64,000 bases of DNA from an uncultured Lachnospiraceae bacterium (GTDB lineage Bacteria; Bacillota; Clostridia; Lachnospirales; Lachnospiraceae), in NCBI GenBank assembly GCA_910585255.1, contig CAJUEI010000003.1, forward strand, positions 2,782 through 66,781, written 5' to 3'. Positions 13,997 to 64,000 of this stretch are shown here, piece after piece; the stretch's first letter is position 1, and each line of letters begins with the position of its first letter. The position numbers were made by a program, and so were the translations under genes. Below the pieces are notes generated by a model. It saw only the letters and a program-made list of their open reading frames with translations, was not told the origin of the DNA and ran no database searches.

Positions 13997-14144
13997 TGTC
14001 CTGCCCGGAAAAATCCAATAGGCAGAAAATAGATGCAGTAAGATACCAATCTTACCCCCAGTATTCTGCCCAAAAACACTTTTCCAGATTAAACCAGAGA
14101 CGAAAAATCAAAACCAAAACTAATTTAAGAAGGGACCCGTAAAA

Positions 14145-24688: not shown

Positions 24689-24740
24689 ATGGGGGAGATT
24701 GGGAGATTAGGAGGGAATTGACAGTGGGGGAGGGGACGCT

Positions 24741-24981
24741 AGAGTGGGGAAGTGCTCCCTTCCTGCTGTTCCGCTCTCCGAAAAGTAAGAAAGTCTTATG
24801 CCTCTGAGTCTGGATGCATCCAACCGGACGAACCGGCACGCAATTCGCCTCTGCAGGAGGCTAAACACGTGCCTTTTTTTGTCATCAGGAGATGACAAAA
24901 AATTCTAGGGAGCTGACAGAGGCATAAGACTTTCTTACTTTTCTCCGAAGTTACAGCAGGAAGGGAGCACTTTCCCACTCT
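24741..24981 (+). repeat. Copy C of the ~243-nt hairpin element
   Basis: The arm at 24741-24806 pairs with 24917-24981. The core reads GGCACGCAATTCGCCTCTGCAGGAGGCTAAACACGTGCCTTTTTTT followed by GTCATCAGGAGATGAC. Confidence 0.8.
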
Positions 24982-25155
24982 GGCTGTTTTTTTCTGCTTG
25001 TAGAGTTGTTGTGGGTGTGCCTTTGGATTATTGGATTGTGTTTGATTGGGGATGATAGAGTGTTTGTTGGGGTGCAGCGGTGGTTAGGGAAAATCCTTTG
25101 TTTTTAGGCATGGGGTGTGTCAATAGAATGGATAGAGTAAGTGAGGAAATTTGGA

Positions 25156-33952: not shown

Positions 33953-35161
33953 ATGTCTATGGTAGTACAACACAATCTTACAGCGATGAACGCTAACAGA
34001 CAGTTGGGTGTCACAACTAGTTCCCAGGCAAAAGCAACTGAAAAATTATCTTCTGGTTATAGAATCAATCGTGCAGGTGATGATGCTGCTGGATTAAAGA
34101 TTTCTGAAAAAATGAGAAGTCAGGTTAGAGGTCTTACTAAAGCATCTACAAATGCACAGGATGGAGTATCTCTTATTCAGACAGCAGAAGGTGCTTTAAA
34201 TGAAGCTCATTCTATTCTTCAGAGAATGAATGAATTAGCAGTACAGGGTGCTAATGATACAAATGAAAGCATTGACCGTGATGCAATTAATGAGGAATTG
34301 GAAGCATTGACAACGGAATTAGATAGAATTTCTTCTACAACGCAGTTTAATAAGCAAAATTTATTAGATGGTAGTTTTCAGGATAAAAATCTTCATGTTG
34401 GAGCAAATGCTAATCAGAGAATTGCAATTAGTATTGGCAATATGGACGCTACAACTTTAGGATTAAGAAAGATTACGGGTAGTGATGGAGAAGCAAAAGC
34501 TCAGGAAGGTTTAAAGCCGAATAAATATGTTTATGGTACAGTTTCTGGAACTTATGATTCAACTAGTTCTATGAATTGGAATAAGAAGGCTGCTATTTCA
34601 GCAGTTAAACAACAAGTAAGTACGGTAATTACTGCTAGCCAATATGCACCAAAGTTTGATACTTCTGTTTATTATGTAGCTAATTCTGATAGTCAGAAAT
34701 ATGCTACTCTTTCAAAGGCAATGGCGGCGGATAAATCTGCATATAAACAAACTGTTAGTAAAGATATAACAGCTAATTTTACAAATTATATTACAACTTC
34801 TGCTGTTGAGGCGAAAAGTGCAAGTCCATTAACTCCAAGTGGAGATTTTGATTTAAAGGCACCAAATGTAAGTACTTATGCAAGAGCAAATGCAACTATT
34901 TCTGCAGTTCAGGAAGCTATTAATAGGGTTTCTTCTCAAAGATCTGCTCTTGGTGCATTACAGAATAGATTAGAGCATACAATTGCTAATTTGGATAATG
35001 TTGCTGAAAATACTCAAGCAGCAGAATCGCGTATTCGTGATACAGATATGGCTTCTCAGATGGTTGAATATAGTAAGAATAATATTCTTGCTCAGGCTGG
35101 ACAGTCTATGTTGGCACAAGCAAATCAATCAAATCAGGGTGTATTATCATTACTTGGTTAG
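33953..35161 (+). CDS. fliC: Flagellin (canonical size, 402 aa)
   Basis: VQHNLTAMNANRQLG...KLSSGYRINRAGDDAAGLKISEKM at the N-terminus, LQNRLEHTIANLDN...AESRIRDTDMASQMVEYSKNNILAQAGQSMLAQANQ at the C-terminus. Strong RBS and its own sigma-28 promoter. Confidence 0.95.
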   Translation: MSMVVQHNLTAMNANRQLGVTTSSQAKATEKLSSGYRINRAGDDAAGLKISEKMRSQVRGLTKASTNAQDGVSLIQTAEGALNEAHSILQRMNELAVQGANDTNESIDRDAINEELEALTTELDRISSTTQFNKQNLLDGSFQDKNLHVGANANQRIAISIGNMDATTLGLRKITGSDGEAKAQEGLKPNKYVYGTVSGTYDSTSSMNWNKKAAISAVKQQVSTVITASQYAPKFDTSVYYVANSDSQKYATLSKAMAADKSAYKQTVSKDITANFTNYITTSAVEAKSASPLTPSGDFDLKAPNVSTYARANATISAVQEAINRVSSQRSALGALQNRLEHTIANLDNVAENTQAAESRIRDTDMASQMVEYSKNNILAQAGQSMLAQANQSNQGVLSLLG

Positions 35162-37493: not shown

Positions 37494-38702
37494 ATGAATT
37501 ATAAAGTCATATTTTTATATAATCAAGAATTACGCCAAGAAGTTGTAGATTTATGGAATTTGTTTAGAGAAGTGGAAATGCAAGTAGAAGATAAAGAACT
37601 ATTGATTAAAATAGTTGATGAATTAAAGAAAATGGAACATATGTTAGGACTTGGATTAGAAGAAAAATTTTTTGAGATATTAAAACAATGGATTCAAGAA
37701 GATGAATGGTTAGTTGCAAAAAAGAATATATTACAGTATTTAATTAATTTATTAGAATTATTAGATTCTTTTTCATGTAAAAATATAATTGACGATAAAT
37801 TTTGTGATATATATAGATATATACTAAATTTAGGAGTAGATGGATTATATGAACAAATGATACAAGAATTTAATCAGTATTGTGAGAAGGAACCAGTAAA
37901 ATCAAGATTCTTAATGAAGTCTTATAATCGAGTGTTATACTGGGGGGGTATTGATTATGATAGAGGAAATTATGAAATGCTTAGAAATCGGGCTGAATCT
38001 TTGGTAGACAATGCTAACGAATTTATATGGATGTATTTAAAATTAAGTGATTATACATCTAAGAGAATATTAAATAACATAATTATAAATTGGATTACGT
38101 TTTCACATGAAGTTTTAGATAAAATACCTCGTAATCAATATGATCAATATTTTGATTTTGATATTATAAGTGATGCTGGTAAAGTATTTGTAGATGCAGG
38201 TGCTTGTAAAGGAGATACGATAGAGTCTTTTATAAGAAATTATAGAAATTATGAAAAAATATATTCATATGAGATAACGCCAGATACGTTTCAGATATTA
38301 TTAGGTAATGTTTCAAGGTATGAAAATGTGGATTGTAGATGTAAAGGAGTATCGAATAAGTCGGGATTAATGTATGTTACTATATGTGAAGATATAGGGG
38401 GAAATCGATTAGGAGAGAATGGAGATATAGAAGTGCCAGTTGTTACATTAGACGAGGATATTGTTGAAAAAATTGATTTTATAAAAATGGATATTGAAGG
38501 GGCAGAATATAATGCATTATTAGGAGCAAAGGGGCATATTCAGAAGGAACATCCATGTCTTGCTATAGCAGCATATCATAATAATGTTGATATTTTTCGA
38601 TTAGCAAAATTAATTTATGAGATGGATGAAAATTATAAATTTTATTATCGTTATTATGGCGGTTCATTGTATCCAAATGATTATGTATTATATGCAATTT
38701 AA
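37494..38702 (+). CDS. FkbM-family SAM-dependent methyltransferase with a ~200-aa N-terminal extension
   Basis: VFVDAGACKGDT (SAM motif I) and IDFIKMDIEGAEYNAL are typical of FkbM. Confidence 0.7.
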   Translation: MNYKVIFLYNQELRQEVVDLWNLFREVEMQVEDKELLIKIVDELKKMEHMLGLGLEEKFFEILKQWIQEDEWLVAKKNILQYLINLLELLDSFSCKNIIDDKFCDIYRYILNLGVDGLYEQMIQEFNQYCEKEPVKSRFLMKSYNRVLYWGGIDYDRGNYEMLRNRAESLVDNANEFIWMYLKLSDYTSKRILNNIIINWITFSHEVLDKIPRNQYDQYFDFDIISDAGKVFVDAGACKGDTIESFIRNYRNYEKIYSYEITPDTFQILLGNVSRYENVDCRCKGVSNKSGLMYVTICEDIGGNRLGENGDIEVPVVTLDEDIVEKIDFIKMDIEGAEYNALLGAKGHIQKEHPCLAIAAYHNNVDIFRLAKLIYEMDENYKFYYRYYGGSLYPNDYVLYAI

Positions 38703-47192: not shown

Positions 47193-47749
47193 ATATTGAT
47201 TTTGAAATACAGGAACAGAAGATAGAAGGAATAAAATTGATTAATCCTTTTTATATAGAGGATAAACGGGGGTATTTTATGAAAAGTTTTGAAAAGGATA
47301 TTTTTAAAAGTTTTGGTATACAGACAGAAATATATGAAGATTTTGAATCTTATTCCATTGGGGGGGTAATACGTGGATTGCATTTTCAAACACAATATCC
47401 TCAAAGTAAACTTGTACGAGTAATAAAGGGAGAGATACGAGATGTTGTTGTAGATTTACGAAAAAATTCAAAAACTTTTGGCAAGTATATGGATATAGTG
47501 TTAAATGAAAAAAATCATTATATGTTATGGATTCCTGCAGGGTTTGCACATGGATTTGAAGTTTTATCAGAAAATGCAATTATGTCATATAAATGTTTTG
47601 GAAAATATAGAAAAGAGTATGATACAGGTATCCGATGGAATGATAAAGATATTTCAGTAGAATGGATAACTTTGAATCCGATCCTTTCAGAAAAAGATAT
47701 GTTTTTAATGACGTTTGATGAATTTGTAAGGAAATATATAGGATTATAG
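47189..47749 (+). CDS. dTDP-4-dehydrorhamnose 3,5-epimerase-like cupin (RmlC family)
   Basis: DKRGYFMKSF, RGLHFQ, KLVRVIKGEIRDVVVDLR and IPAGFAHGF motifs. I chose the ATG at 47189, which overlaps the upstream stop (ATGA). Confidence 0.85.
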   Translation: MNIDFEIQEQKIEGIKLINPFYIEDKRGYFMKSFEKDIFKSFGIQTEIYEDFESYSIGGVIRGLHFQTQYPQSKLVRVIKGEIRDVVVDLRKNSKTFGKYMDIVLNEKNHYMLWIPAGFAHGFEVLSENAIMSYKCFGKYRKEYDTGIRWNDKDISVEWITLNPILSEKDMFLMTFDEFVRKYIGL

Positions 47750-50455: not shown

Positions 50456-50716
50456 TTAAATTTCTATTTTATATGTTTCTTTAAGAATTTCAATTCCTTT
50501 TTCATAGGAACTGAGATCAATAATATCGTCAGTATCCATTGTAATTTCAAAACTGTCTTCTAATTCTGCAATTAAGGACATATGACCGACAGAATCCCAT
50601 TCTGGAATACTCATATACTCTAAGCCAGTTAGTTTATTTTTTTCAATTGCAAATGTTTCCATAAAAGCTGCATCATATTTTTCCCTATTAGTCATAATTA
50701 AGTTCCTCTCTTTCAA
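50456..50716 (-). CDS. Acyl/peptidyl carrier protein (ACP-1)
   Basis: 86 aa, acidic. EWDSVGHMSLIAELE contains the phosphopantetheine serine context. Confidence 0.75.
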   Translation of the reverse strand: MKERNLIMTNREKYDAAFMETFAIEKNKLTGLEYMSIPEWDSVGHMSLIAELEDSFEITMDTDDIIDLSSYEKGIEILKETYKIEI

Positions 50717-50730
50717 TTTTATATAATTAA

Positions 50731-51771
50731 TTATATTTCGTTAGCAATGGCATTTTCTTGGATTAAGGTATCTTCTTCTACATCAATTAATAGCTTTTTA
50801 CCTATAAGCCATTCAATTTTATCAGGACTTAAACCGGTGCCAGGGCGTTTTAGATCGAGATCGTCTTCTGAAAGTATTGTCCCAGCTTTTAGATTTCTTT
50901 TGCTTACGATACTTCTCCGCATTTTTAACCTTTGTTCTAATTCTTCAGAAGAAACACATCTTTCTTCACTTCCTAAGGCAATTGACACAGAGTGACAATT
51001 TTTTACTAATTGCTTCATTTCTTCTTTTTCTATTGCCATCTGGTTATCCATACCAATTTTAGAACGATCTAAAGTAAAGTGTTTTTCTATTAAGCTTGCT
51101 CCTAAAGCAATAGAGGCGGGAGCTAATTCTATTCCAAGGGAATGATCGGAAAAACCAATTGGATAATTAGGAAAATATTTTTTTAGCCCCAAAATATTTT
51201 TTAGATAAATTTTATCTTTTGTTGTTGGATAAATGGAAGTACAATGTAAAATACAAATATTATAATTATCAGCATCTTCTATTGTTTTAATTGCTGCACG
51301 TATTTCTTCTAAACTACCCATTCCAGTAGATAAAACAATAGGAGCTTTTGTTTTTGCTATATATTTAAGAAAAGGATAATTATTTAAGTCCATAGAAGCT
51401 ATCTTAATATATGGTACATCACAGTATTCTAAAAGAAAATCTACTTCTTTTTCAGAGTATGGAGTGGATGCAAATGCAATTTTTTTCTCTTTACTATATT
51501 TGGCAACTTCTAAAAGTTGTTCATTAGAGAAAGCAAATTTTTTTACAAAACGTTCTGCTATAGGGTTTTCTTTATAATAGCTTTTAGAATAAAGGGTTTT
51601 AGAGGACCAAGATTGAAATTTTACACAATCACAGCCAGCTTGTTTAATTTCATCAATCATCTTTTTAGCTGTTTCTACACTTCCATTGTGACTGGTATTT
51701 ACTTCAGCTACAATATAAGGAGAATAAGAGTTACCAATTTTTCTTTTATCTAGGAATACACATTCTGTCAT
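50731..51771 (-). CDS. NeuB-family PEP-condensing synthase (NeuB/PseI/LegI-like) with a C-terminal SAF domain
   Basis: YIVAEVNTSHNGSVETAKKMIDEIKQAGCDCVKFQSW, ILHCTSIYPT, GFSDHS, EKHFTLDR, then a SAF-like RSIVSKRNLKAGTIL...LKRPGTGL. Confidence 0.85.
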   Translation of the reverse strand: MTECVFLDKRKIGNSYSPYIVAEVNTSHNGSVETAKKMIDEIKQAGCDCVKFQSWSSKTLYSKSYYKENPIAERFVKKFAFSNEQLLEVAKYSKEKKIAFASTPYSEKEVDFLLEYCDVPYIKIASMDLNNYPFLKYIAKTKAPIVLSTGMGSLEEIRAAIKTIEDADNYNICILHCTSIYPTTKDKIYLKNILGLKKYFPNYPIGFSDHSLGIELAPASIALGASLIEKHFTLDRSKIGMDNQMAIEKEEMKQLVKNCHSVSIALGSEERCVSSEELEQRLKMRRSIVSKRNLKAGTILSEDDLDLKRPGTGLSPDKIEWLIGKKLLIDVEEDTLIQENAIANEI

Positions 51772-51788
51772 TTTTGTAACCTCCTTTC

Positions 51789-53576
51789 TTATTGATCAAT
51801 GGGTTCTATTATCATTTCTGATAGAAATAGTTCTCTATCTAAAAAAGGAGCCTGATCTTCAAGTGGTCTACGTACAATCTTTTTAGATTGGTTTCTAGCA
51901 TATGAATTACAAATATATTCTTGATTTTCTACCCCTATAATTTCACAAAGTACAGAAGAATCTAATTGCAGAATACTGGATAATTGTTCTTCTAGATTTT
52001 TACTGGTTTCTATTTTGATATAAGTCATATCGAAACATTCAGCGATTTTCTTGAAGTTAGGACAACTAACACCATTATTGGAGTCTGTACCAATTGTTCG
52101 AGTTCTGAAAAGATCTTGTTGTCTTTTTCGTATAATGGAGTATATATTATTATTAATAACAAATATTTTTATAGGAAATTGATGATAACGGATGGTTTCT
52201 AATTCTTGGAGATTCATCATAATAGAACCATCACCAATTACAGCTATTACATTTTTATTGCCAGTTGAAGCAATACCAATTGTTCCAGGAAGTGCAAATC
52301 CCATGGCACCTTGCATAGGAGAATGAATACATCTCATATTTTTTTTAAATGAGATATTAGATGGAAGAATAAGTTCCTCTAGTCCAGCATCGCATAAAAA
52401 TACAGAATTTTCAGGTAAAGTATTAGTAAAACCTTCCGCTAAACGATAAAGATCTACTTTTGATTGATTTTTATATTTATCTTCACATTTTGGAAAGATA
52501 TTTTTCCAATGGAGACATTTTTCTTGCCATTCTATTGATGTAGTTTTTATTTTTTTATCTAATATAGATGTAAGGAAATATTTTATATCTACAATCAGCA
52601 GTTTATCAATTTGAACAGATCTTTTGGAATGTTCTATTTTATCAATATCAATAACAATGATTTTAGCAGCACGTGCAAATTTTTCATATTCTTCGCCAGT
52701 TGTCATAGAAGATAAACGACATCCTAGAATAAGTAATAAATCGGAATTTTGTACAGCAAAATTTCCTGCCCTTGTTCCACATAAACTACCTACAGTTCCA
52801 ATTGATAAAGGATTTTCTAATCCATATAAATCTGTAGCTGTATGTGAATAGGTAACAGGTATTTTAGTTTTTTCTACAAATTTATAAAATAATTCTTTAG
52901 AATTTGAGGTTCTTACTCCACTGCCAATTAATAAAATAGGTCTTTTTGCAGTATTAATTGCTTGGCAGATTTCTTCTATATTTGTATCTAGGTAATTAAA
53001 ATTTTCTTTTTTTTCTTCAGGGATATATCGTTCTAGTTTTTCTGGTTCAATTCTCATATTTTGAATATTAATTGGAATGTCTATCCAAACAGGTCCTTTT
53101 CTTTCTGAATTTGCATAATAAAAAGCTTTATCTAATTCATATGCAATTTGCTCAGCAGAGGTAATCATAGTTGCATATTTTGTAATTGACTTAACAATTG
53201 GAATAATATTTGTTTCTTGTGAACCGTATGTTCGAATAGGTATTTTTGTGTAATTTACAGTTTCATTTAATATATTTTGTCCGGAAATAAAGATACAAGG
53301 TATTCCATCTTGCCAAGCTTCCAATACGCCTGTGATTGTATTCGTAGATGCACAACCTGTAGATACAAGACAAGCACCAATTTTTTCAGTATATTGAGCA
53401 TTAGCGGTTGCAGCAAAGGCGGCAGCCTGTTCATGATGCATAGAAATATTTTTAATTTTTTCAAATTTTGCTACTGCATCTGATAAATACAGTATTCCTC
53501 TTCCTGTAATAGAAAAGATATTTTTTACTCCTTCTTCATAAAGTCTTTCTATGATATAATCGGCTACTCTAATCAT
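51789..53576 (-). CDS. Thiamine-diphosphate-dependent enzyme, acetolactate-synthase-like (second copy in the window)
   Basis: HHEQAAAFAATANAQ and STGCASTNTITG in the N-domain. GDGSIMMNLQELET...INNNIY is the TPP motif. Confidence 0.85.
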   Translation of the reverse strand: MIRVADYIIERLYEEGVKNIFSITGRGILYLSDAVAKFEKIKNISMHHEQAAAFAATANAQYTEKIGACLVSTGCASTNTITGVLEAWQDGIPCIFISGQNILNETVNYTKIPIRTYGSQETNIIPIVKSITKYATMITSAEQIAYELDKAFYYANSERKGPVWIDIPINIQNMRIEPEKLERYIPEEKKENFNYLDTNIEEICQAINTAKRPILLIGSGVRTSNSKELFYKFVEKTKIPVTYSHTATDLYGLENPLSIGTVGSLCGTRAGNFAVQNSDLLLILGCRLSSMTTGEEYEKFARAAKIIVIDIDKIEHSKRSVQIDKLLIVDIKYFLTSILDKKIKTTSIEWQEKCLHWKNIFPKCEDKYKNQSKVDLYRLAEGFTNTLPENSVFLCDAGLEELILPSNISFKKNMRCIHSPMQGAMGFALPGTIGIASTGNKNVIAVIGDGSIMMNLQELETIRYHQFPIKIFVINNNIYSIIRKRQQDLFRTRTIGTDSNNGVSCPNFKKIAECFDMTYIKIETSKNLEEQLSSILQLDSSVLCEIIGVENQEYICNSYARNQSKKIVRRPLEDQAPFLDRELFLSEMIIEPIDQ

Positions 53577-53607
53577 TATATATTCCTTTCTATATGAATT
53601 AGTTTTT

Positions 53608-54084
53608 TTATTTTTTTGGTTTAAAAGAATTTAAAATATCTGGAATAGCTATTACGAATTCTGCTGAACAAGCTTCTTCATCATTAACAAAACTTTTTAC
53701 ATATCCTTTAGCAATACCTCTTCGGAAGGACAAAAGTTCTGCATAAATATCAAGTTGATCTCCTGGAATAATTTTACGTTTAAATTTTATATTATTGGCA
53801 CTTACAAAACTTGTTTTTTTCCCTTTATATTCATCCATACATAAAAAAGTCATAATAAATGTTTGGGCAAGACATTCTATCTGAATAAAACCTGGAACAT
53901 TGGGATCATCTGCGAAATGTGCAGGAAAATACCATTCATTATAACTAAAATTTTTTATACCATGTGCCGTTTTTCCTGGTTCGATTGCTATTATTTTATC
54001 AATGAATAATAGAGGATATCTGTTTTGTTGGGAATTTTGAATGTCTATTATCCCTAAATTAGTTAGAATTTCATTATTTTTCAT
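53608..54084 (-). CDS. FabZ/FabA-like hotdog-fold dehydratase (FabZ-like 1)
   Basis: NRYPLLFIDKI, FPAHFADDPNVPG (catalytic His) and IECLAQ (catalytic Glu). Confidence 0.75.
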   Translation of the reverse strand: MKNNEILTNLGIIDIQNSQQNRYPLLFIDKIIAIEPGKTAHGIKNFSYNEWYFPAHFADDPNVPGFIQIECLAQTFIMTFLCMDEYKGKKTSFVSANNIKFKRKIIPGDQLDIYAELLSFRRGIAKGYVKSFVNDEEACSAEFVIAIPDILNSFKPKK

Positions 54085-54192
54085 AGTGATTTTATCCTTT
54101 TTATTTATAATAATCTTAATTTTATTATTATGTGTATTTTTATTAAATTTTATTTTTGATATGCTTATAAAATTTTTTTAGATTTGTTAAAA

Positions 54193-54389
54193 AATATTTT
54201 ATGGTTTCGAGAAAAGTGTACTTTTTCCAAAACTTGTACTTGTATAATTTTAATATAAAATTTAAAAAAAATCAAGAGCATCATTAACCTTTTTAGCAAA
54301 AATATTGTTTAAATTTGTGTTTATAAAGAATATAATTTTATATTTTATAGTTTTGGAAAAAGTACACTTTTTACGAAACTATAAAATAT
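54193..54389. promoter_or_regulatory. 41-bp inverted repeat pair (54193-54233 and 54349-54389) bracketing a 115-bp AT-rich segment in the divergent promoter region
   Basis: The arms are reverse complements at 38/41 positions (hand alignment). Each arm contains the palindrome AAAAGT-GT-ACTTTT. Inside the bracketed segment a leftward TTGATT-17-TAAAAT promoter-like match lies at 54274-54246. Confidence 0.8.
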
Positions 54390-54453
54390 GAAAAAAGTAG
54401 TTATTTCCAAGGTTTGAAAGGATTCAAATTATAATTTCAGGAGGAAGATTAAA

Positions 54454-54699
54454 ATGACAAATTATGAAAAATATGTAGAAGCATTTAAAACAGGGCTTGG
54501 CATTGATGGAGATAAGGTAACAAAGGAGTTGACATATCAATCTGTAATGGAATGGGATTCAGTAGGGCATATGGAATTAGTTGCTGAATTGGAAGAAGTA
54601 TTTAACATTTCTATGGATACGGATGATATTGTTGACTTTAATTCATTTGAGGCAGGAATAAAGATCCTTAAAAAATATAATATAAAGATTGAGGAATAA
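54454..54699 (+). CDS. Acyl/peptidyl carrier protein (ACP-2), paralogue of ACP-1
   Basis: 81 aa. EWDSVGHMELVAELEEVF...MDTDDIVDF is closely parallel to the 50456-50716 product. RBS GGAGGAAG. Confidence 0.75.
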   Translation: MTNYEKYVEAFKTGLGIDGDKVTKELTYQSVMEWDSVGHMELVAELEEVFNISMDTDDIVDFNSFEAGIKILKKYNIKIEE

Positions 54700-54705
54700 A
54701 CAGAG

Positions 54706-55446
54706 ATGATTAAAGATAAGTATGCTGTTGTAACAGGAACAAGCAGAGGAATTGGGCGTGCAGTAGCAGAAAAATTAGCACAGTGTGGGGCTGATCTATT
54801 TGTGTGTGCAAGAACCAGAACAGATGAATTTGAAGAGTGGGTAACACAACTTCAGATTCAGACAAATAGAAAAATTATGTCTGTTTATTTTGATTTACAG
54901 GATGAAAATCAGATAAAAGAAGCATTTTTACAGATTAAAAAGGCGTCTGTTCCTATTGATATTTTAGTAAATGTAGCAGGCTGTGTGTATAGTGCAAATT
55001 TTCAAATGACCGGAATAAGTAAAATGAAGGAATTATTTGCAATTAATTATTTTAACCAAATACAGTTTACGCAATATATTTTAAAGCTTATGTTAAAACA
55101 ACATAAAGGAAGTATTGTAAATATTGCATCAAGTGGCGGAATAGATGGAAATCCAGGCAGAACTGCTTATAATGCTACAAAGGCATCCATTATTTCTACT
55201 ACTAGAACAATGGCAAAAGAATTGGGTAAAAATGGAATTCGAGTAAATGCTATTGCTCCAGGATTAATTGATACAGATATGGCAAGAAATTATACTCCCG
55301 ATTCTATTATGAAACTTGAATTAGAAAATACTTGTATGGGACGTATAGGAAAAGCAGAGGAAGTTGCAAATGTGGTAGAATTTCTTGCATCTGATGCAGC
55401 ATCTTATGTAACAGGACAGGTATGGCGTGTGGACGGAGGAATGTAG
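54706..55446 (+). CDS. Short-chain dehydrogenase, 3-oxoacyl-ACP reductase (FabG)-like
   Basis: VVTGTSRGIGRAVA, NVAG, S...YNATK catalytic residues and PGLIDTDM. Confidence 0.85.
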   Translation: MIKDKYAVVTGTSRGIGRAVAEKLAQCGADLFVCARTRTDEFEEWVTQLQIQTNRKIMSVYFDLQDENQIKEAFLQIKKASVPIDILVNVAGCVYSANFQMTGISKMKELFAINYFNQIQFTQYILKLMLKQHKGSIVNIASSGGIDGNPGRTAYNATKASIISTTRTMAKELGKNGIRVNAIAPGLIDTDMARNYTPDSIMKLELENTCMGRIGKAEEVANVVEFLASDAASYVTGQVWRVDGGM

Positions 55447-55448
55447 TT

Positions 55449-56303
55449 TTGGATGAGAAAACGATCAATAAGATAAGTGAATTTGCTTTTCATATGAGAA
55501 AGCATGCTCTAACTATGTCATATGCATCTGGGAATCATGCAGTTCATTTTGGTGGTGGTATGTCTGTAATTGATATTTTGGCAGTTTTATATGCAGAGAT
55601 ATTAAAATTGGATAGGGAGAATCCTGTTTGGGAAGACAGAGATAGATTTATTATGAGTAAAGGTCATGGTGTAATTGGATATTATGCGGCATTAGCAGAA
55701 GTTGGTTATATCCCTTTAGAAGAGCTGAAAAAATTTGAACAAGAGAATTCTTATTTAATGGGTCATCCTGTTTATACTCCTAAATATGGAATCGAATTTA
55801 CAAACGGAAGCCTTGGTATGGGAGTTTCCCTTGGAATAGGAACAGCATTGTCAGCTAAAAAGAAAGGAAAAAACTATAAAACTTATATATTAATCGGTGA
55901 TGGAGAAGCAGATGAAGGTTCCATATGGGAAGCTGCTATGTCTGCAGTTCAGTTTCAGTTAGATAATTTATGTGTGATTATAGATCGGAATCGTCTACAA
56001 CTTGGCGGGGATACAGAAGAAATTATGGCACATGGTGATTTAAGAAAGAAATATGAGATATTTGGATGGAATTCTTATGAAGTGAATGGGCATAATGTGA
56101 AAGAATTGTGTCATGTATTTCATGAAATACCAGTAAATAAAAAACCATCAATTATTATTGCTAATACGATAAAAGGAAAAGGATTTCATTTTTCAGAAAA
56201 TAATAATTCCTGGCATCATGCAGTAATGACAGAATCACAATATGAAGCAGCATTAAAAGAGCTGGAGGATAGCTATTATGGAAATAACAGCAAAAAATGT
56301 TAA
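55449..56303 (+). CDS. Split transketolase, N-terminal (TPP-binding) subunit
   Basis: HFGGGMSVIDILAVLY, RDRFIMSKGHG and GDGEADEGSIWEA. The likely start is TTG 55449, 9 nt after GGAGG; the track ORF begins at 55422. Confidence 0.8.
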   Translation: MDEKTINKISEFAFHMRKHALTMSYASGNHAVHFGGGMSVIDILAVLYAEILKLDRENPVWEDRDRFIMSKGHGVIGYYAALAEVGYIPLEELKKFEQENSYLMGHPVYTPKYGIEFTNGSLGMGVSLGIGTALSAKKKGKNYKTYILIGDGEADEGSIWEAAMSAVQFQLDNLCVIIDRNRLQLGGDTEEIMAHGDLRKKYEIFGWNSYEVNGHNVKELCHVFHEIPVNKKPSIIIANTIKGKGFHFSENNNSWHHAVMTESQYEAALKELEDSYYGNNSKKC

Positions 56304-57243
56304 AAAATGGTCTACGGTAGGAGCACGACCTACATTTGGAATGACTATGGTGGAATTAGCGAAGACAAATCCAAATATGATAGTACTTACTGCAGATGTA
56401 TCTACTTCAGCAGGATTAGAACGTTATAAAAAGATGTTTCCAGAGCAATTTATTGATGTGGGTATTGCAGAACAAAATATGATGGGAATTGCGACAGCTC
56501 TTTCAAAAGAAGGATATTGTGTGGTTACAACAACATTTGCACCATTTCAATCTATGAGGTGTTTAGAGCAGATTCGAGTAAATCAAGGATATATGGGTCT
56601 GCCTGTTATTATGGTTGGACTTTCAAGCGGATTATATCATTGTTATTTAGGAAATACACACTGTTGTTTTGAAGATGCAGCTATTTTACGCTCTATTCCT
56701 AATATTGCAGTTGTGACACCTGCAGATGGTGCTGAGATTGTAAAAACATTTGAATATGCTGTTAATTATCATAAATCAATATATGTTCGTTTGATTGAGG
56801 GAAAAAATCTTCCAATTATATATAAGGAAGACTTTTCATTTTCAATAGGAAAAGCAAATATTTTAAGAGAAGGACAGGATATTGTAATATTGGCAAATGG
56901 TACTATGGTGGCTCAGGCTTTAACAGCAGCAGATATTTTACAAGAAAGGGGTATATCCTGTAAAGTTATTGATTTTCATACGATAAAACCATTAGATACA
57001 GAGTTATTGGATTCTGTTATAGATTATCCATTATTAATTACCATAGAAGAACATAGCGTAATTGGAGGATTAGGTTCCGCTGTAGCAGAGTATATGATAC
57101 AAAAGAGAAGAAAACCAAGGCAGCTTTTCATGGGAATTCAAGATTTTTATCCACATTCTAGTGACTATGAGACCGTGTTAAAGCAGTGTGGATTGACGGC
57201 AAAGCAGATTGCAGAAAAAATAGTAAGCGAGATAGGTGAGTAA
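56278..57243 (+). CDS. Split transketolase, C-terminal (pyrimidine-binding) subunit
   Basis: FIDVGIAEQNMMGIATALS, TFAPF, and the C-terminal domain IDFHTIKPLD. Confidence 0.8.
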   Translation: MEITAKNVKKWSTVGARPTFGMTMVELAKTNPNMIVLTADVSTSAGLERYKKMFPEQFIDVGIAEQNMMGIATALSKEGYCVVTTTFAPFQSMRCLEQIRVNQGYMGLPVIMVGLSSGLYHCYLGNTHCCFEDAAILRSIPNIAVVTPADGAEIVKTFEYAVNYHKSIYVRLIEGKNLPIIYKEDFSFSIGKANILREGQDIVILANGTMVAQALTAADILQERGISCKVIDFHTIKPLDTELLDSVIDYPLLITIEEHSVIGGLGSAVAEYMIQKRRKPRQLFMGIQDFYPHSSDYETVLKQCGLTAKQIAEKIVSEIGE

Positions 57244-57247
57244 AAAT

Positions 57248-58276
57248 ATGGGTTACGTAGATAAAAAAAGAGTGCTTCAAAAACTTCACAATTTTCATAA
57301 GGCTGTAAAAGAAAATGGCGGGAAAATTGGAACAGCACCAAGAATTATTGATTTAAGTTATGATAATGCATGTAATTTTAAATGTCAGCATTGTTTTACA
57401 AAAGCACCAGAAGGAATTAATACATTAAAACATATGCCAATGGAAATGATAACGAAATTAGCGGATGAAGCAGATACCTTAGGATTTTATGAGTTTGATT
57501 TACAGGGAGGAGAATTATTGATTCGTCCTGAACAATTTTTTGATTTGGTAAAAGCAGTAGGAGCAGAAAGATTTTATATTTATTTAACAACGAATGGGTA
57601 TTTTCTAGATCAAAATATGGCACATCGATTAGCTCAGGCAGGAATTGACAGGGTATCTGTCAGCATTGATGGCTTAGATGCAAAAGAACATGATTCTTTT
57701 CGAGGAAAAAGTGGAGCATTTGATAGGGCAATTCATGCATTAAAGTATGTAAAAGAAGAAGGAATGGAACCTTTTATGAATATTACAATAGGTCATTACA
57801 ATGCCTTCTCAAAAGAATTAGAAGAACAACTTGCTTATTCCTATGAAAATGGTTTTAAATCAATTTTAAACGCAGCTGTTCCGGCTGGATGCTGGAAAAA
57901 TAATTATGATATTATGCTGACAGAGGAAGATACAAAACATATTGAACAGTTGAGAAAAAAGTATCCCAATATGATAAGGGATATATGGGATCCTTTTGAT
58001 CGGAAACAAGAAAAAATATTGGGATGTAATGCAGGAAATATTTTATACATTACTCCTTGGGGAGACGTTTTGCCATGTCCATTTATTCATATAAAATTAG
58101 GAAATATTTATGAAATGAGTTTAGAAGAGATTGTAAATTATACATTTTCATTGGATGCGTTTTCTGAATATTCGGATAAATGTTTAGCCGGGGAAGACAA
58201 AGATTTTGTGAAAAAATATATGAGTGGAGATATATCAACTCAAAATCCTGTAAGTGCGGCAGAAATTTTTAGATAA
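57248..58276 (+). CDS. Radical SAM enzyme with a SPASM/twitch-like C-terminal Cys cluster
   Basis: CNFKCQHC (CxxxCxxC) near the N-terminus. The C-terminus has GCNAG...PWGDVLPCPF. I chose the ATG at 57248 behind AGGTGAG. Confidence 0.8.
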   Translation: MGYVDKKRVLQKLHNFHKAVKENGGKIGTAPRIIDLSYDNACNFKCQHCFTKAPEGINTLKHMPMEMITKLADEADTLGFYEFDLQGGELLIRPEQFFDLVKAVGAERFYIYLTTNGYFLDQNMAHRLAQAGIDRVSVSIDGLDAKEHDSFRGKSGAFDRAIHALKYVKEEGMEPFMNITIGHYNAFSKELEEQLAYSYENGFKSILNAAVPAGCWKNNYDIMLTEEDTKHIEQLRKKYPNMIRDIWDPFDRKQEKILGCNAGNILYITPWGDVLPCPFIHIKLGNIYEMSLEEIVNYTFSLDAFSEYSDKCLAGEDKDFVKKYMSGDISTQNPVSAAEIFR

Positions 58277-58291
58277 GTAGGAGGAAATGGT

Positions 58292-58765
58292 ATGGAGGAA
58301 AAGTTGAGTTTGGATATTGTTCAGATTCAGGAATATGAAGCGAATCGTTATCCATATTTATTAATTGATAAAGTAACAGAAATTGTTCCGGGAAAGTATG
58401 CAAAGGGATATAAAAATCTTACATTTAATGAATGGTTTTTTCCCTGTCATTTTGAAGGGTGTCCGAATATGCCAGGGATGCTTCAAATAGAAGCATTATC
58501 TCATGTATTTATTTTATTATTTCTAACATTACCTGGAAATAAAGGAAAAATTACTAATATTCTAGGGGCAAATAATTTAAAATTTTATCAAAGGGTATTA
58601 CCAGGAGATAGATTAGAGATAGAAGCAGAATTGAATTCATGGAAACGTGGAATTGGAATTGGACCTGCACGGGGATATGTAGATGGAAAATTGGTATGTG
58701 AAGCAGAATTTAAAATTTGTATCCCAGAAATTTTACAGCAATATACACCTAAAAGTAATAAATAG
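58292..58765 (+). CDS. FabZ/FabA-like hotdog-fold dehydratase (FabZ-like 2)
   Basis: NRYPYLLIDKV, FPCHFEGCPNMPG and IEALSH. The C-terminus parallels FabZ-like 1. Confidence 0.75.
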   Translation: MEEKLSLDIVQIQEYEANRYPYLLIDKVTEIVPGKYAKGYKNLTFNEWFFPCHFEGCPNMPGMLQIEALSHVFILLFLTLPGNKGKITNILGANNLKFYQRVLPGDRLEIEAELNSWKRGIGIGPARGYVDGKLVCEAEFKICIPEILQQYTPKSNK

Positions 58766-58773
58766 TAAGGGAA

Positions 58774-59934
58774 ATGGTATTGTTATATGAAGTAATGATT
58801 AGAGAGGATGGGAATACGGTGTTAGAATTATCAGAAATAACTTTTTCAATGGATAAAACGCAAAGTTATATTATTTATGGACCAGGTGAAAATGGAAGAA
58901 TGTTAAAGCGGGTGCTAGATATATTAAATCAAAAAGTTTCTTGCTTTATTTGTAGTACTGGACATAAGAAAGTAACTGAAATAGATGGAATTCCAGTATT
59001 TGAATTGTCAGAGTATTTAAATTCTAAAGAAAAGAATTTGGACAAAATCTTAATGACTGTATGTGGGGGGGTAGACTCTATTTTAGAGGGGTTGAAGAGG
59101 CAACTGGAAAATGTGATTTGCCAAATTAATTCATCACAAGATATTTGTAAAGTATATGAATATTTTTATAGAAATTATTTTTTACAAAGAGGGGTTGATT
59201 TGAGCGGAGATTTTATAAAGCTAAAGGAAATGGAATTTATTAATCCGTTTAAAGCAGAACTATCTTATTCATTGGCTTTTTATATGTCGTGTGGGGATAT
59301 TATTCTTCCAACTATATATAAGGATTTATCTTGTAGTTGGGAGGGATCATATGAAGTATCTCCTGTTCTGTTGCAGGAAAATGATATTGTTATAGATTGT
59401 GGAAGCAATATGGGACTTTTTTCAATTATAGCAGCTAATCGATGTGCAAAATCATATGCATTTGAATGTGTGCCATCTACTTATCATTATATCAATCAAA
59501 TTTGTAAAAAATACAATAACATAGAATTGGTAAAGAAAGCGATAGGAGCATTTGTAGGTAAGGTTAGATTTTCTATGGATGAGGATCTTAATTGTAATAA
59601 TCGGATTGTATGGGAGGATGGAGAAATTGGACATAATCCAGTAAAATTTGGTGCTCCTGAAAACTTTCAATTAGTTGATATGATAACAATAGATGAATTT
59701 GTAAAAGAATATAAATTAGATAAAGTAGATTTTATAAAAGCTGATATTGAAGGGGCAGAGCGAGATATGCTTAGAGGGGCACAAGAGACTTTGAGAAAAT
59801 ATTCTCCTAAATTGGCTATATGTGAATATCATATGCTAGATGATCCGGAAGTGCTTGAAAAGATTATATTGGATGCAAATCCAAATTATGTTGTTTTTCA
59901 TAAATATAAAAAATTATATGCTTATGTACCTTAA
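58774..59934 (+). CDS. FkbM-family methyltransferase (second copy) with an N-terminal extension
   Basis: VIDCGSNMGLFS (SAM motif I) and VDFIKADIEGAERDML. Confidence 0.7.
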   Translation: MVLLYEVMIREDGNTVLELSEITFSMDKTQSYIIYGPGENGRMLKRVLDILNQKVSCFICSTGHKKVTEIDGIPVFELSEYLNSKEKNLDKILMTVCGGVDSILEGLKRQLENVICQINSSQDICKVYEYFYRNYFLQRGVDLSGDFIKLKEMEFINPFKAELSYSLAFYMSCGDIILPTIYKDLSCSWEGSYEVSPVLLQENDIVIDCGSNMGLFSIIAANRCAKSYAFECVPSTYHYINQICKKYNNIELVKKAIGAFVGKVRFSMDEDLNCNNRIVWEDGEIGHNPVKFGAPENFQLVDMITIDEFVKEYKLDKVDFIKADIEGAERDMLRGAQETLRKYSPKLAICEYHMLDDPEVLEKIILDANPNYVVFHKYKKLYAYVP

Positions 59935-60009
59935 GATTAGGATAAGCTGTTTTGATTTTGTGGTTGTATAAAAAGTTTATAAAAATTGGTATATTAAAGG
60001 AAATTATAA

Positions 60010-60953
60010 TGATGAAAGAAATTCAAGATAAAATTAAGAGAATTTGTTCTATGCTTCAAATTGATATTCCTATTTTACAAGGGGCAATGGCTTATATTGC
60101 TAATTATAAATTGGCGGCAGCAGTTTCTGAATATGGTGGATTAGGAATTCTTGCAGCAGGTGGATTGAAATCAGAGCAGCTAGAATATGAAATTAATGAA
60201 TTAAAGAAGTGTACTAAAAAAAGTTATGCAGTTAATATTGCATTAAAAAGTGATAATGTAGAAGAGATTATTTGTATTTTAAAAGATCAGAAAGTGCCTA
60301 TTGTTGTTACAGGAGCGGGAAATCCTGAAAAATATATTTCTGAATTAAAGGGATATGGAGCGAAAGTGATTCCTGTAGTTGCTTCTGTAGCATTGGCAAA
60401 AAGAATGGCTAGATATGGTGCGGACGCAGTAATAGCTGAAGGAAGTGAATCAGGTGGTCATATTGGAAATACAAATACTATGTGTTTAATACCGCAAGTT
60501 GTAGATGCAGTAGATATTCCTGTTATAGCAGCTGGTGGAATCGCTGATGGGCGTGGAGCAGCTGCTTCTTTTATTCTTGGAGCTTGTGCCGTTCAGATGG
60601 GAACACGGTTTCTTGTATCAAGTGAAAGTCCAGCTCATAAAAATTACAAGGAATTACTTTTAAGGGCAAAAGATATTTCAACTGTTGTATTAAATACTAC
60701 ACAAAATGATCAGGATAATATTAGGGCAGTAAAGAGTTTATTGACGGGACAATATTTAGAGGCAGAATTTCGTGGTAGGGAAAATCCAGGATGGATGTTA
60801 AAAGATGCTTTAAAAAAAGCAGCTAAGAATGGAGACAGCAGTCAAGGTCTTTTTATGGCAGGACAATGTGCGGGTTTGATAAAAGAGGAAATGTCAGTTG
60901 AAGAAATTTTAAAACAAGTATGGGGAGATGTTTGTAAATATTTAGAATTATAA
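60010..60953 (+). CDS. FMN-dependent enoyl-ACP reductase II (FabK) / nitronate monooxygenase family protein
   Basis: PILQGAMAYIANYKLAAAVSEYGGLGILAAG, DAVIAEGSESGGHIG and IAAGGIADGRG. I chose the ATG at 60010. Confidence 0.75.
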
Positions 60954-60997
60954 GTGTTTGATTAATAGATAAAAAATAGTTTAAGTTGGGAGAAAAG

Positions 60998-61435
60998 ATG
61001 GAGGAGATAAAATTAGATATAGAGGGAATTAAAAAATATATAAAAATTAGATATCCTGTTTTAATGCTAGATGGAGCAACAGTAATTCCTGGTGTTAGTG
61101 CAGAAGGATTTAAAATATTAGATGGAAAAGAGGAATTTTGGAAAGGACATTATCCAGAATATCCTATTATGCCTGGAACTTATCAATTAGAAGCATTGGC
61201 ACAGCTTTTTTCATTGAGTTTTTTGGTTTTAAATGATTATAGTGAGATAATTCCTAAATTGGTTGGGTTTGAGAAAGTACGATTTTATAAAGAAGTAAAA
61301 CCAGGAGAAAAAAATCATAGCTTAATAATGTCAGCAAAATTACTTTCCTTTAAGCATAATGTTGCAAAAGGAGAAGCAAAAGGAATGGTTAATGGAGAGA
61401 TTGTATGTAGTGCAGAAATTAAGACCTTTTTATAG
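60998..61435 (+). CDS. FabZ/FabA-like hotdog-fold dehydratase (FabZ-like 3, most divergent)
   Basis: IRYPVLMLD, GHYPEYPIMPG and LEALAQ. I chose the ATG at 60998 behind GGGAGAAAAG. Confidence 0.65.
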   Translation: MEEIKLDIEGIKKYIKIRYPVLMLDGATVIPGVSAEGFKILDGKEEFWKGHYPEYPIMPGTYQLEALAQLFSLSFLVLNDYSEIIPKLVGFEKVRFYKEVKPGEKNHSLIMSAKLLSFKHNVAKGEAKGMVNGEIVCSAEIKTFL

Positions 61436-62168: not shown

Positions 62169-63764
62169 ATGGGAATTTATCTGAATCCAGGAAATGAAGC
62201 GTTTCAAATTTCAATTGCTAGTGAGATATATGTAGATAAGACAGAAATGATTTCTTTTGTTAATAAAAGATTAGGACAAGAGAAGAGATTTTTGTGTGTA
62301 AGCAGACCACGTAGATTTGGAAAGTCTATGGCAGCAAATATGCTTTGTGCTTATTATGATAGAGAATGTGATTCCAAGGAATTGTTTAAAAGGTTCAGTA
62401 TAGCAAAAGAGATTTCTTTTGAACAACATCTTAATCAATATGATGTAATTTTTTTAAATATTCGGCAATTGATACATACAGCTGATAAGATAGAAAATTT
62501 AGTTGATACAATAGAAGGACAAGTTTTAGAAGAGATAAAAGAGAACTATAAAGAATTTTTAAATGATTCCATTACAACTTTACCACTTGCACTTACTACT
62601 ATTTTTACAAAAGAGAGCAGATTAAAAAAAGGATTTATATTTATTGTGGATGAATGGGACTGCATTTTTCGTGAAGCAAAAGAAAATGTACAAGTTCAAA
62701 AAAAATATTTAGATTTTCTACAAGATTTATTTAAAGATCGGACTTATGTAAAATTAGTGTATATGACAGGTATTTTACCTATAAAAAAGTATGGAACACA
62801 TTCTGCACTTAATATTTTTGATGAGTTTTCTATGACAGCACCAAAAAAATTAGCAAAATATGTTGGTTTTACAGAGGAGGAAGTAAAGGAATTATGTTAT
62901 ACTTTTTCCATGAATTTTGAAGATATGAAACGTTGGTATGATGGATATCATTTAAGACAAGGTATTCATATCTATAATCCTAAATCAATAGTGGATGCTA
63001 TTATGGAAGAGGAAATTCATAGTTATTGGAATAATACAGAAACTTATGAGGCACTTAAGATTTATATTGATATGAATTTTTCTGATTTAAAAAACTCTGT
63101 GATAACTTTATTAGGAGGAGGAAAATGTAAAATTAATTCAAGAAAATTTCAGAATGATATGACAAGTTTTGAAAGTAAAGATGATATTTTTACACTTTTG
63201 GTACATTTAGGTTATCTCTCTTTTGATGAAGAAACACAAGAAGTTTGTATTCCTAATCAAGAAATTGGAGAGGAGTTTAAGAATGTGATAGAAGGAGAAA
63301 GTGGATGGGGAATATTAGCGGATATGTTACAATATTCAGAAAAATTATTAGAAGCAACCTTACGTCATGATACAAATATAGTAACAAGCATATTAAATAA
63401 AGTTCATGTGGAACAAACTTCTGTTTTATCTTATAATGACGAGAATTCTTTAAGTTGTGTAATAACACTTGCTTATTTTAGTGCGAAAAAAGATTATATA
63501 TTTATAAGAGAGTTTCCTACAGGAAAAGGATTTGCAGATATAGTGTTGCTTCCACGTAAACAGTCAGATAAACCAGCAATAGTGATAGAATTGAAGTGGA
63601 ATCATTCTGTTAATGGAGCGATTCAGCAGATAAAGGAAAAAGCATATATTTCGGCATTGGAAAATTATACAGGAGAAATTTTGCTTGTTGGAATTAATTA
63701 TAGTAAGAAAACAAAAGAGCATCAATGTATAATAGAAACATATAAAAAAAGTAAAGGAAAATAA
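62169..63764 (+). CDS. AAA-ATPase-like N-domain fused to a PD-(D/E)xK nuclease-like C-domain (the family formerly named DUF1703)
   Basis: The N-terminal YVDKTEMI...VSRPRRFGKSM is a P-loop. The C-terminal GKGFADIVLLP...AIVIELKW is a D...E-x-K motif. RBS AAAGGAGG. Confidence 0.7.
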   Translation: MGIYLNPGNEAFQISIASEIYVDKTEMISFVNKRLGQEKRFLCVSRPRRFGKSMAANMLCAYYDRECDSKELFKRFSIAKEISFEQHLNQYDVIFLNIRQLIHTADKIENLVDTIEGQVLEEIKENYKEFLNDSITTLPLALTTIFTKESRLKKGFIFIVDEWDCIFREAKENVQVQKKYLDFLQDLFKDRTYVKLVYMTGILPIKKYGTHSALNIFDEFSMTAPKKLAKYVGFTEEEVKELCYTFSMNFEDMKRWYDGYHLRQGIHIYNPKSIVDAIMEEEIHSYWNNTETYEALKIYIDMNFSDLKNSVITLLGGGKCKINSRKFQNDMTSFESKDDIFTLLVHLGYLSFDEETQEVCIPNQEIGEEFKNVIEGESGWGILADMLQYSEKLLEATLRHDTNIVTSILNKVHVEQTSVLSYNDENSLSCVITLAYFSAKKDYIFIREFPTGKGFADIVLLPRKQSDKPAIVIELKWNHSVNGAIQQIKEKAYISALENYTGEILLVGINYSKKTKEHQCIIETYKKSKGK

Positions 63765-63823: not shown

Positions 63824-64000
63824 TTATAGTTTGAAATTTTTTCGAGGATGTTTTGTGGTTAATATATCTTTTTGTTTAGCCATAGCTACATGAGTATAAA
63901 TTTGTGTTACACTGATAGAACTGTGTCCAAGCATTTCTTGAATATAACGGATATCTACATCAGCTTCTAATAGGTAAGTAGCAAAGGAGTGGCGAAACAT
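63824..64000 (-). CDS. 3' end of a tyrosine site-specific recombinase/integrase (XerC/D-like); it continues beyond the window and is absent from the ORF track
   Basis: My translation of the reverse complement reads [58 protein letters not shown]-stop. It contains the RHSFAT (H-x-x-R), LGH and catalytic Y (IYTHV) box II motifs. Confidence 0.8.

Follow-up and report, generated by a model that had tools for sequence, protein, structure and literature searches.

A DNA-inversion switch between two divergent, putative flagellin glycan-modification operons in an uncultured Lachnospiraceae bacterium

Introduction

What is the function of the long inverted repeats that separate two divergent operons in the genome of an uncultured Lachnospiraceae bacterium? 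The repeats lie in a 369-bp intergenic region within the 64,000-nt stretch of contig CAJUEI010000003.1 (assembly GCA_910585255.1, positions 2,782 to 66,781) that was analyzed here and is referred to as the window. An initial annotation of this DNA had placed FabZ, thiamine pyrophosphate (TPP) enzyme and NeuB genes to the left of the repeats, reading leftward, and acyl carrier protein (ACP), FabG and transketolase genes to the right, reading rightward, a gene context that our analysis bore out. It had also offered two readings of the repeats themselves, i.e., that they bracket an invertible promoter segment, or that they form a mirrored pair of operators. Here, we report that the feature is a genuine DNA-inversion switch (inverton). 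Taken as a whole, our interpretation is that of an inverton which is flipped by conservative site-specific recombination and which probably acts as a promoter swap on flagellin-glycan operons; we assign it a probability of roughly 75%.

Both orientations of the segment occur in public contigs

Contigs of the same organism were found by look-up of exactly identical flanking proteins, while those of a second lineage (lineage B) were found via a variant ACP protein. The names that NCBI gives to identical proteins place the organism as an uncultured Lachnospiraceae bacterium. The 114 bp enclosed by the repeats (54235-54348, no strand assigned) constitute the invertible segment, i.e., the DNA that reads differently between orientations. 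These 114 bp were reverse-complemented in seven of 20 public samples of the organism (L004, L005, L035, L036, L038, L056 and L057, including runs SRR29305865, SRR14944325 and SRR29841326) and forward in the other 13, as well as in the window itself. Forward contigs include runs SRR17684640, SRR31374184 and ERR3199597; L001, L003 and L006-L010 all have the orientation of the window. In the flipped samples, the flanks were unchanged and the outer half-sites kept their own left- or right-specific variants. Between the window and L004, for instance, differences in orientation were confined to 54235-54348. The first reading in the initial annotation, that of an invertible segment, is supported by these data.

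The two states recur in near-identical backgrounds. L004 and L005 are approximately 98.3% identical to the window across 6.4 kb, yet their 114 bp are flipped. When contigs were sorted into sub-lineages by private variants within the segment, both orientations were present in each of three. Sub-lineage A1b, several members of which derive from one ENA study, comprises forward contigs L058 and L059 and flipped contigs L055 (= L004), L056 and L057, with L058 carrying the same private segment variants as L055 and L056. In sub-lineage A2, forward L039 and flipped L005 are identical in segment sequence. Sub-lineage B comprises L037, L040 and L053 (forward) and L035, L036 and L038 (flipped). Here, L037 and L040 showed no mismatch to L038 in 2,800 nt of right flank, and L037 and L038 were 99.75% identical over 20 kb, even with the misaligned switch counted in. 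Moreover, lineage B keeps the switch and the right operon but has another left operon next to them. Flipped copies were obtained from four kinds of source, i.e., Logan contigs, SPAdes-style and MEGAHIT-style ENA contigs, and an NCBI metagenome-assembled genome (MAG). Two defining properties of an inverton, inverted repeats around a short intergenic segment and both orientations in near-isogenic genomes, are thus found at this locus, and we regard natural inversion of the segment as almost certain.

The ends of some contigs bear on whether both orientations were mixed within one sample. Two contigs from different assemblies (ERZ12802723 and GCA_948673465.1) end exactly 55 nt from a point of divergence. 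These are L006, an NCBI MAG, which terminates 55 nt outside the right divergence point, and L040 (= L054), a SPAdes contig with 48x coverage, which starts 55 nt outside the left one. This distance is the fork position of a k=55 assembly graph, and such ends would be expected if the sample held both orientations. As the distance fits only two of six contig-end cases, they are no more than suggestive of within-sample mixing, and the recurrence of both states in near-identical backgrounds is the stronger argument for switching.

One further contig deserves mention. L057 (ENA ERZ13404099 NODE_2333) enters the flipped switch through 30 nt (L057:1-30) that match nothing fetched. They were set aside as a likely chimera of low coverage (6x), the alternative being a further rearrangement of the switch. 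A scan of Joint Genome Institute metagenomes with a 21-mer shared by the switch sites returned five unrelated single chance matches, the organism being absent from that collection.

Structure of the recombination sites

The left arm (54194-54234) matches the reverse complement of the right arm (54349-54389) at 38 of 41 positions. When the 369-bp intergenic region was resampled 60 times with a first-order Markov model, the best 41-nt inverted repeat had 26.6 matches on average and never more than 30. The degree of match was therefore as first described, although the left arm had been placed one nucleotide too far to the left (54193-54233) and the flanked segment had been given as 115 bp rather than 114 bp. 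A looser repeat with 81% identity extends to 59 nt per arm (54194-54252 and 54331-54389). In lineage A, the arms are exactly identical over 23 nt only, and in lineage B over 18 nt. Each arm is palindromic itself, so that the arm pair was also scored as a direct repeat.

Within the arms, two sites can be delineated, neither of which is assigned a strand. The left site (54203-54234) reads GGTTTCGAGAAAAGT-GT-ACTTTTTCCAAAACT, i.e., two 15-nt half-sites around a central GT, with the outer similarity of the left arm reaching out to 54194. The right site (54349-54380) reads AGTTTTGGAAAAAGT-AC-ACTTTTTACGAAACT around a central AC, and its palindrome stretches over 54336-54393 in a 28-2-28 arrangement with 24 of 28 positions paired. 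The 6-2-6 palindrome that had been noted in each arm is therefore real, but its true extent is 15-2-15, and 28-2-28 in the right copy. The 15-nt half-site consensus is ARTTTWGNAAAAAGT, giving ARTTTWGNAAAAAGT-GT-ACTTTTTNCWAAAYT as the GT-centred form of the full site. Because the AC centre on the right is the reverse complement of the GT centre on the left, the two sites are in inverted orientation. Judged by its sequence, the 32-bp, 15-2-15 architecture would fit the core site of a recombinase, and a palindromic site with a 2-bp asymmetric centre (here GT/AC) is a hallmark of serine invertases.

The 15-nt core AAAAGTGTACTTTTT has no further copy anywhere in the 64-kb window, and the core motif was not found in any other fetched locus, being restricted to the switch. 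An Rfam search of the intergenic region yielded nothing credible, only spurious microRNA matches with E > 6. By chance, the 21-mer scan also led to an unrelated metagenome contig (JACCDW010455526.1, L031:1108-1185) in which a 21-nt unit, AGTGTACTTTTTCGTAAAAAT, is repeated in tandem at least four times. These units contain the GTGTACTTTTT core common to the switch sites and have an iteron-like look.

Position of the crossover

When forward and flipped copies of lineage B were compared, only AAAAAGTGTACTTTTTCC was common at each boundary, which places the exchange inside AAAAAGTGTACTTTTTCC. With the crossover within the arm cores, the DNA that is physically inverted spans approximately 54220-54363.

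A separate event, present in one contig only, bears on the mechanism of exchange. Contig L002 (Logan SRR20488358_657) carries a 1.34-kb inversion of window positions 52878-54217, which reverses FabZ together with the first 242 codons of the TPP enzyme gene and splits the latter into fragments of 305 aa and 242 aa. The inversion is reciprocal, with both junctions present and no bases gained or lost. The exchange took place inside TGTA, which occupies the very middle of the left site (54217-54220); its partner was a TACA at 52875-52878 in the TPP enzyme gene (no strand assigned). Apart from TACA/TGTA, this pseudo-site has only a weak resemblance to the switch site. The bases that flank TGTA differ between the two partners, and each product has the left base of one parent and the right base of the other. 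The overlap between the recombining strands must therefore have been 4 nt or less, including the central GT. As read from these junctions, a reciprocal exchange of this kind is characteristic of conservative, site-specific recombination acting on the middle of the site.

Predicted effect of inversion on the two operons

Two promoter-like elements, each recognized by consensus match only, lie inside the segment and point outward. The rightward one (54308-54336, + strand), of the sigma-70 type, reads TTTAAA-17-TATAAT, matches the consensus at 10 of 12 positions, is preceded by an A-tract and, as the window is oriented, faces the ACP/FabG/transketolase operon. The leftward one (54275-54247, - strand) reads TTGATT-17-TAAAAT, matches at nine of 12 positions and, again as the window is oriented, faces the FabZ/TPP/NeuB operon. 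Only the latter had been noted previously, with coordinates shifted by one nucleotide (54274-54246), and the better, rightward match was overlooked. The -10 hexamers occupy exact mirror positions (54331-54336 and 54247-54252). Both rightward hexamers are kept in all sub-lineages, while the leftward -10 hexamer reads TAAACT in lineage B. In that lineage, the ATG of the left operon lies approximately 28 nt from the core of the left site, so that the promoter of the left operon would have to be inside the invertible segment. As RNA, the arms fold into 5'-terminal hairpins, with a predicted energy for the right leader of -22.9 kcal/mol as compared with -16.9 kcal/mol after a flip; the longer hairpin stem sits in the leader of the transcript from the TATAAT promoter.

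Given that promoter-like elements face both ways, a promoter swap appears likely, rather than the toggling of one promoter. In the mechanism that we propose, the segment would hold two outward-facing, non-identical and mirror-placed promoters of the sigma-A type. Transcription would start immediately inside a site, with starts predicted near 54343 (+) and 54240 (-), and the site would form a hairpin at the 5' end of the RNA; a flip would exchange which promoter faces which operon. Such an exchange might alter the relative expression of two operons that are predicted to build acyl/keto-acid decorations of the flagellin glycan, with flagellar glycoform variation within a clone as the outcome. 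With promoter activity and asymmetry both included, we consider a promoter swap that affects both operons reasonably probable.

The right operon also contains a poly-G tract, which may add to this variation. The tract (59065-59071, + strand) is a G7 run inside an FkbM methyltransferase gene, and its length varies by strain and breaks the reading frame. The gene is intact in the window (386 aa, G7), and the tract is G8 in L055 and L057 and G9 in L060. In L035, L037, L038 and L040 it is one base shorter, and the FkbM gene is called as two fragments. The variation looks like slipped-strand phase variation of the type seen in Campylobacter flagellin glycosylation genes, and the tract would then form a second layer of phase variation at the locus. 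Further G7 tracts are found at 37942-37948 and 47360-47366 of the surrounding island of approximately 30% GC, in FkbM1 and RmlC. The presence of several poly-G tracts in the island supports the view that stochastic variation is selected for. A fuller model can be put forward tentatively at most, i.e., a two-state toggle, as opposed to an ON/OFF switch, in which a nearly symmetric 114-bp cassette with unequal promoters would turn one flagellin-glycan pathway up and the other down in a single flip, the sites would double as leader hairpins, and the poly-G tract would multiply the number of states.

A candidate recombinase in the island

As reported initially, a tyrosine recombinase is encoded at the end of the window, where 63824-64000 (- strand) holds the C-terminal end of a 306-aa XerC/D-like protein, 9.4 kb from the switch. 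The full gene is present in contig L009 (L009:11656-12576). The protein has an N-terminal SAM-like domain, Phage_int_SAM_1 (PF02899), followed by Phage_integrase (PF00589), and alignment to E. coli XerD (1A0P) showed that all six catalytic residues (R, K, H, R, H, Y) are present. With 232 bits, it missed the equivalog cut-offs for XerD (329.6) and XerC (335.15), and the GC content of its gene (30.7%) is that of the island and not that of the core genome. The gene is retained in both versions of the island, and it is on the switch contig wherever one contig spans both. The lineage B copy is 97% identical, is on the same contig as the switch and again stands beside an AAA-ATPase gene. Whether this enzyme is the invertase we regard as an even question.

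The protein belongs to a large family, with at least 7,996 of 8,000 scored candidates at E <= 1e-40, the best 120 of which are 67-100% identical to it. A link between this family as a whole and invertons was considered and was not established across 15 homologue loci. The neighbouring AAA-ATPase_like/PDDEXK_9 protein (62169-63764) is convergent with the recombinase gene in both island types and may be a partner of the recombinase. In an unrelated MAG, a distant relative with 26% identity (L015:11217-12827) is found at the equivalent place, next to a homologue of the recombinase (72% identical). Contigs L010, L013, L014 and L043 end shortly past the 3' end of the window, approximately 185-255 nt upstream of the start codon of the recombinase gene, and strains differ in the genes that follow. 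A second inverton at this place was considered and discarded, since no inverted repeat was found there; the region is probably a strain-variable junction.

Weighing of alternative explanations

Inverted repeats can confuse assemblers, and several contigs do break near the switch. That the flipped copies are assembly artefacts is nevertheless very unlikely, to the point of being negligible. Logan contigs use k=31 and the last k of metaSPAdes is 55, and here the 'k141_' contig names and the 55-nt ends point to k=141 and k=55, whereas the arms are identical over just 18-23 nt. With arm identity shorter than k, k-mers of the reads span each arm into unique sequence, and an artefact would also have had to arise in four kinds of source with consistent lineage-specific variants. 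The two orientations might otherwise be old alleles, fixed after rare RecA-dependent recombination between the repeats, given that consensus assemblies alone are available and that each contig shows one orientation. This we hold to be quite improbable in view of the two states occurring with no mismatch in 2,800 nt of flank and with identical private segment variants. An exact identity of 18-23 nt, furthermore, does not exceed the shortest homology on which RecA acts efficiently, the event in L002 needed just 4 nt of common sequence, and two contigs end exactly 55 nt from a point of divergence. It is likewise improbable that the arms are mirrored operators or leader hairpins, through which a dimeric repressor or RNA-level control would regulate both operons in the same way, with inversion as an incidental by-product. 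Each arm is indeed a long palindrome directly downstream of a -10 hexamer and folds as a 5'-terminal RNA hairpin (-22.9 kcal/mol for the right leader). However, inversion recurs in at least three sub-lineages and two gene contexts, the reciprocal event in L002 cuts exactly at the centre of the palindrome, no regulator gene stands beside the operons, and the motif is nowhere else in the window. No transcription-factor domain was found among the scanned open reading frames (ORFs) of the window, i.e., nearly all coding-strand ORFs of at least 100 aa and three shorter ones next to the switch. The contigs of other strains annotate a 78-aa HTH_26/HTH_3 protein at a position equivalent to approximately 5.6 kb in the window, about 49 kb from the switch. 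Of what a repressor-operator system would have, a cognate regulator gene was not found beside the operons, and other copies of the operator were not found in the rest of the window or, away from the switch, in the fetched loci. Of this second reading in the initial annotation, the palindromic form of the arms stands, with a recombinase dimer in place of a repressor as the best candidate for their ligand. The roles of operator and recombination site are not mutually exclusive and can coexist.

If, as we conclude, the segment is flipped by site-specific recombination, the enzyme may still be a different one, i.e., a serine invertase or other recombinase encoded elsewhere and acting in trans, with the XerC/D-like neighbour uninvolved. 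We see this as a possibility to be taken seriously, albeit not the favoured one. The sites are palindromic around a 2-bp asymmetric centre, as hix sites are, the exchange in L002 is confined to TGTA containing the central dinucleotide, and homologues of the neighbour in other genera are not adjacent to inverted repeats. Moreover, most switches of Clostridioides difficile are flipped by a distant recombinase, such that the catalyst need not adjoin its site (PMC5903667). Set against this, the 32-bp site can be read as 13-6-13, which is equally typical of Cre/Xer-type enzymes, and the tyrosine recombinase is kept in the island in both of its versions. The 114-bp segment contains no ORF, and no resolvase or invertase gene or domain was found in it or among the scanned ORFs of the window.

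Several observations weigh against our interpretation of an inverton that swaps promoters and is served by a neighbouring recombinase. Other contigs end 59, 76 or 126 nt from a point of divergence, or inside the switch, and no single k fits these distances. Promoter-like matches are common in DNA of approximately 25% GC, 11 being found as compared with 7.3 expected, and in lineage A weak matches of this type also lie beyond the switch, upstream of FabZ. Since promoter-like elements point in both directions, the sequence would suggest no firm size or even direction for a regulatory effect. As to the recombinase, its homologues at 15 other genome loci, mostly from Lachnospiraceae (56-72% identical, with one outlier at 34%), sit among unrelated genes and share no synteny with the island. 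The two loci with annotated neighbours carry housekeeping genes. None of the 15 has the core motif or a comparable inverted repeat within 10 kb, the exception being a weak repeat pair in L017 (38 nt, 79%). Because the homologues are not found beside inverted repeats, the proximity of recombinase and switch may be a coincidence. Finally, an exchange within 4 nt or less, as in L002, suits the 2-bp crossover of a serine-type enzyme better than the 6-8-bp overlap of tyrosine recombinases. On the junction sequences, a serine-type crossover would be the simpler fit, though a single event cannot settle the matter.

Comparison with known switches

Classical invertons that work in a like manner include the flagellar and cwpV switches of C. 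difficile, Salmonella Hin, E. coli fimS and the Bacteroides capsule promoters (PMC5903667; PMC11602134; PMC12355684). The switches Cdi4 (upstream of flgB) and cwpV, which are acted upon by RecV, resemble the present one in that they are likewise from Clostridia and consist of a short intergenic segment (approximately 150-200 bp in C. difficile) between imperfect inverted repeats. Both systems have a flagellum-related output, and RecV is a tyrosine recombinase, as is the candidate here. In C. difficile, the promoter is not part of the invertible DNA, whose orientation takes effect through the leader RNA. Here, by contrast, the segment lies between divergent operons and in lineage B would have to hold a promoter, the arms are full palindromic 32-bp sites, and the target is the modification of the flagellin glycan and not flagellar assembly genes.

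The Salmonella H-segment with Hin, and the related Gin, Cin and Pin systems, offer a parallel in that flagellar antigens are likewise varied by flipping a promoter-bearing segment. The hix and gix sites are imperfect palindromes with a 2-bp asymmetric centre, which is the crossover point. These systems have a serine invertase gene inside a segment of approximately 1 kb as well as a Fis enhancer, whereas the segment here is 114 bp without a gene, its half-sites are 15 nt in length as opposed to 12, and no serine recombinase was detected among the scanned ORFs of the window. In Cre/loxP, FLP/FRT and Xer/dif, inverted arms of 11-13 bp surround an asymmetric spacer of 6-8 bp. The present site is readable in the same way, as 13-6-13 with the spacer GTGTAC, but it has no sequence resemblance to dif, and the junctions in L002 suggest an overlap of 4 nt or less.

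Surface-glycan diversity generated by invertible promoters is known in gut commensals, as exemplified by the capsule of Bacteroides fragilis (PMC12355684; PMC5903667). The Bacteroides Mpi/Tsr switches are one-way ON/OFF promoters before single loci, with short repeats common to many loci and one master serine recombinase, whereas here a single switch stands between divergent operons and its promoter-like elements point in both directions. Campylobacter is the closest analogue in function. Stochastically phase-variable flagellin glycans of the nonulosonic-acid type, i.e., the same output, are described for Campylobacter jejuni (PMC13130089, PMC13317227). There, poly-G tracts in maf and related genes vary by slipped-strand mispairing alone, whereas here variable poly-G tracts are accompanied by DNA inversion.

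The class of mechanism is not new, invertons being well known and catalogued by the tens of thousands. What appears to be new is the target and the layout, i.e., the placement of an inversion switch between two operons for flagellin glycan modification in an uncultured member of the Lachnospiraceae, the conservation of that switch while an adjoining operon has been swapped, and the poly-G frameshift tract as a second layer. No inversion switch that acts on flagellin glycosylation genes came up in our searches of the literature. Flagellins of Lachnospiraceae are dominant antigens in intestinal immunity. A clone that varied its flagellar sugars could alter recognition by antibodies and the innate immune system with the protein itself unchanged and, if the toggle described above is true, this would be a previously unrecognized route to flagellar antigenic variation in gut Lachnospiraceae.

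Genomic context

The left operon (50456-54084, - strand) encodes a FabZ-like dehydratase (53608-54084, -), an acetolactate-synthase-like TPP enzyme (51789-53576, -), a NeuB-like synthase (50731-51771, -) and a small ACP-like ORF (50456-50716, -) without a Pfam match. The right operon (54454-61435, + strand) encodes an ACP, FabG, a split transketolase, a radical SAM/SPASM protein, FabZ, the FkbM methyltransferase, an NMO/FabK-like protein and a further FabZ. Part of the small left ORF (50517-50602) is 79% identical at the DNA level, over 87 nt, to part of the right-hand ACP gene (54550-54635). The operons thus carry paralogous carrier proteins, in agreement with the earlier description of two partly paralogous modules.

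The window passes from a cell-wall polysaccharide locus of approximately 42% GC into the island of approximately 30% GC. The latter opens with FlaG, FliD, FliS and FlgN, followed by two flagellins and a Maf/PseD-like flagellin modification protein, and then by FkbM methyltransferases, AMP-ligase/LuxE/LuxC, glycosyltransferases and rhamnose-pathway genes. The adjacent flagellin genes (30703-33732 and 33953-35161) encode proteins of 1,009 aa and 402 aa, the former being unusually long due to a large central region between the conserved N- and C-terminal domains. Beyond the right operon, the AAA-ATPase/PD-(D/E)XK protein is followed by the 3' end of the tyrosine recombinase gene at the window edge. 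Longer contigs show PglD-, NeuB-, NeuC-, NeuA-, PseB- and PseC-like genes beyond the recombinase, which thus lies within the flagellin glycosylation island.

The island is mosaic. In the lineage B contigs L035-L038, L050, L051 and L053, the left operon is replaced while the switch and the right operon are unchanged. The replacement operon encodes a 337-aa protein, a short-chain dehydrogenase/reductase, an ACP, an AMP-ligase, a 284-aa protein, LuxE and LuxC. An orf346/AMP-ligase/LuxE/LuxC block lies downstream of the right operon in lineage B and upstream in the window.

The polysaccharide locus contains four near-perfect intergenic inverted repeats of its own (9823-10065, 13751-13997, 24738-24984 and 18909-19048), with arms of 27-32 nt that are 89-100% complementary. 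Two of them include matches to the TwoAYGGAY RNA (Rfam RF01731) above the gathering score, namely 13786-13961 (+ strand, 65 bits) and 9859-10030 (- strand, 59.6 bits), and the element at 24738 is a sequence relative of these two. The four were considered as further invertons and set aside, two being TwoAYGGAY matches, a third (24738) their relative and the fourth being without an assignment. The centre of the 13751 copy is oriented opposite to those of the other two TwoAYGGAY-type repeats, and contigs L048 and L049 break there.

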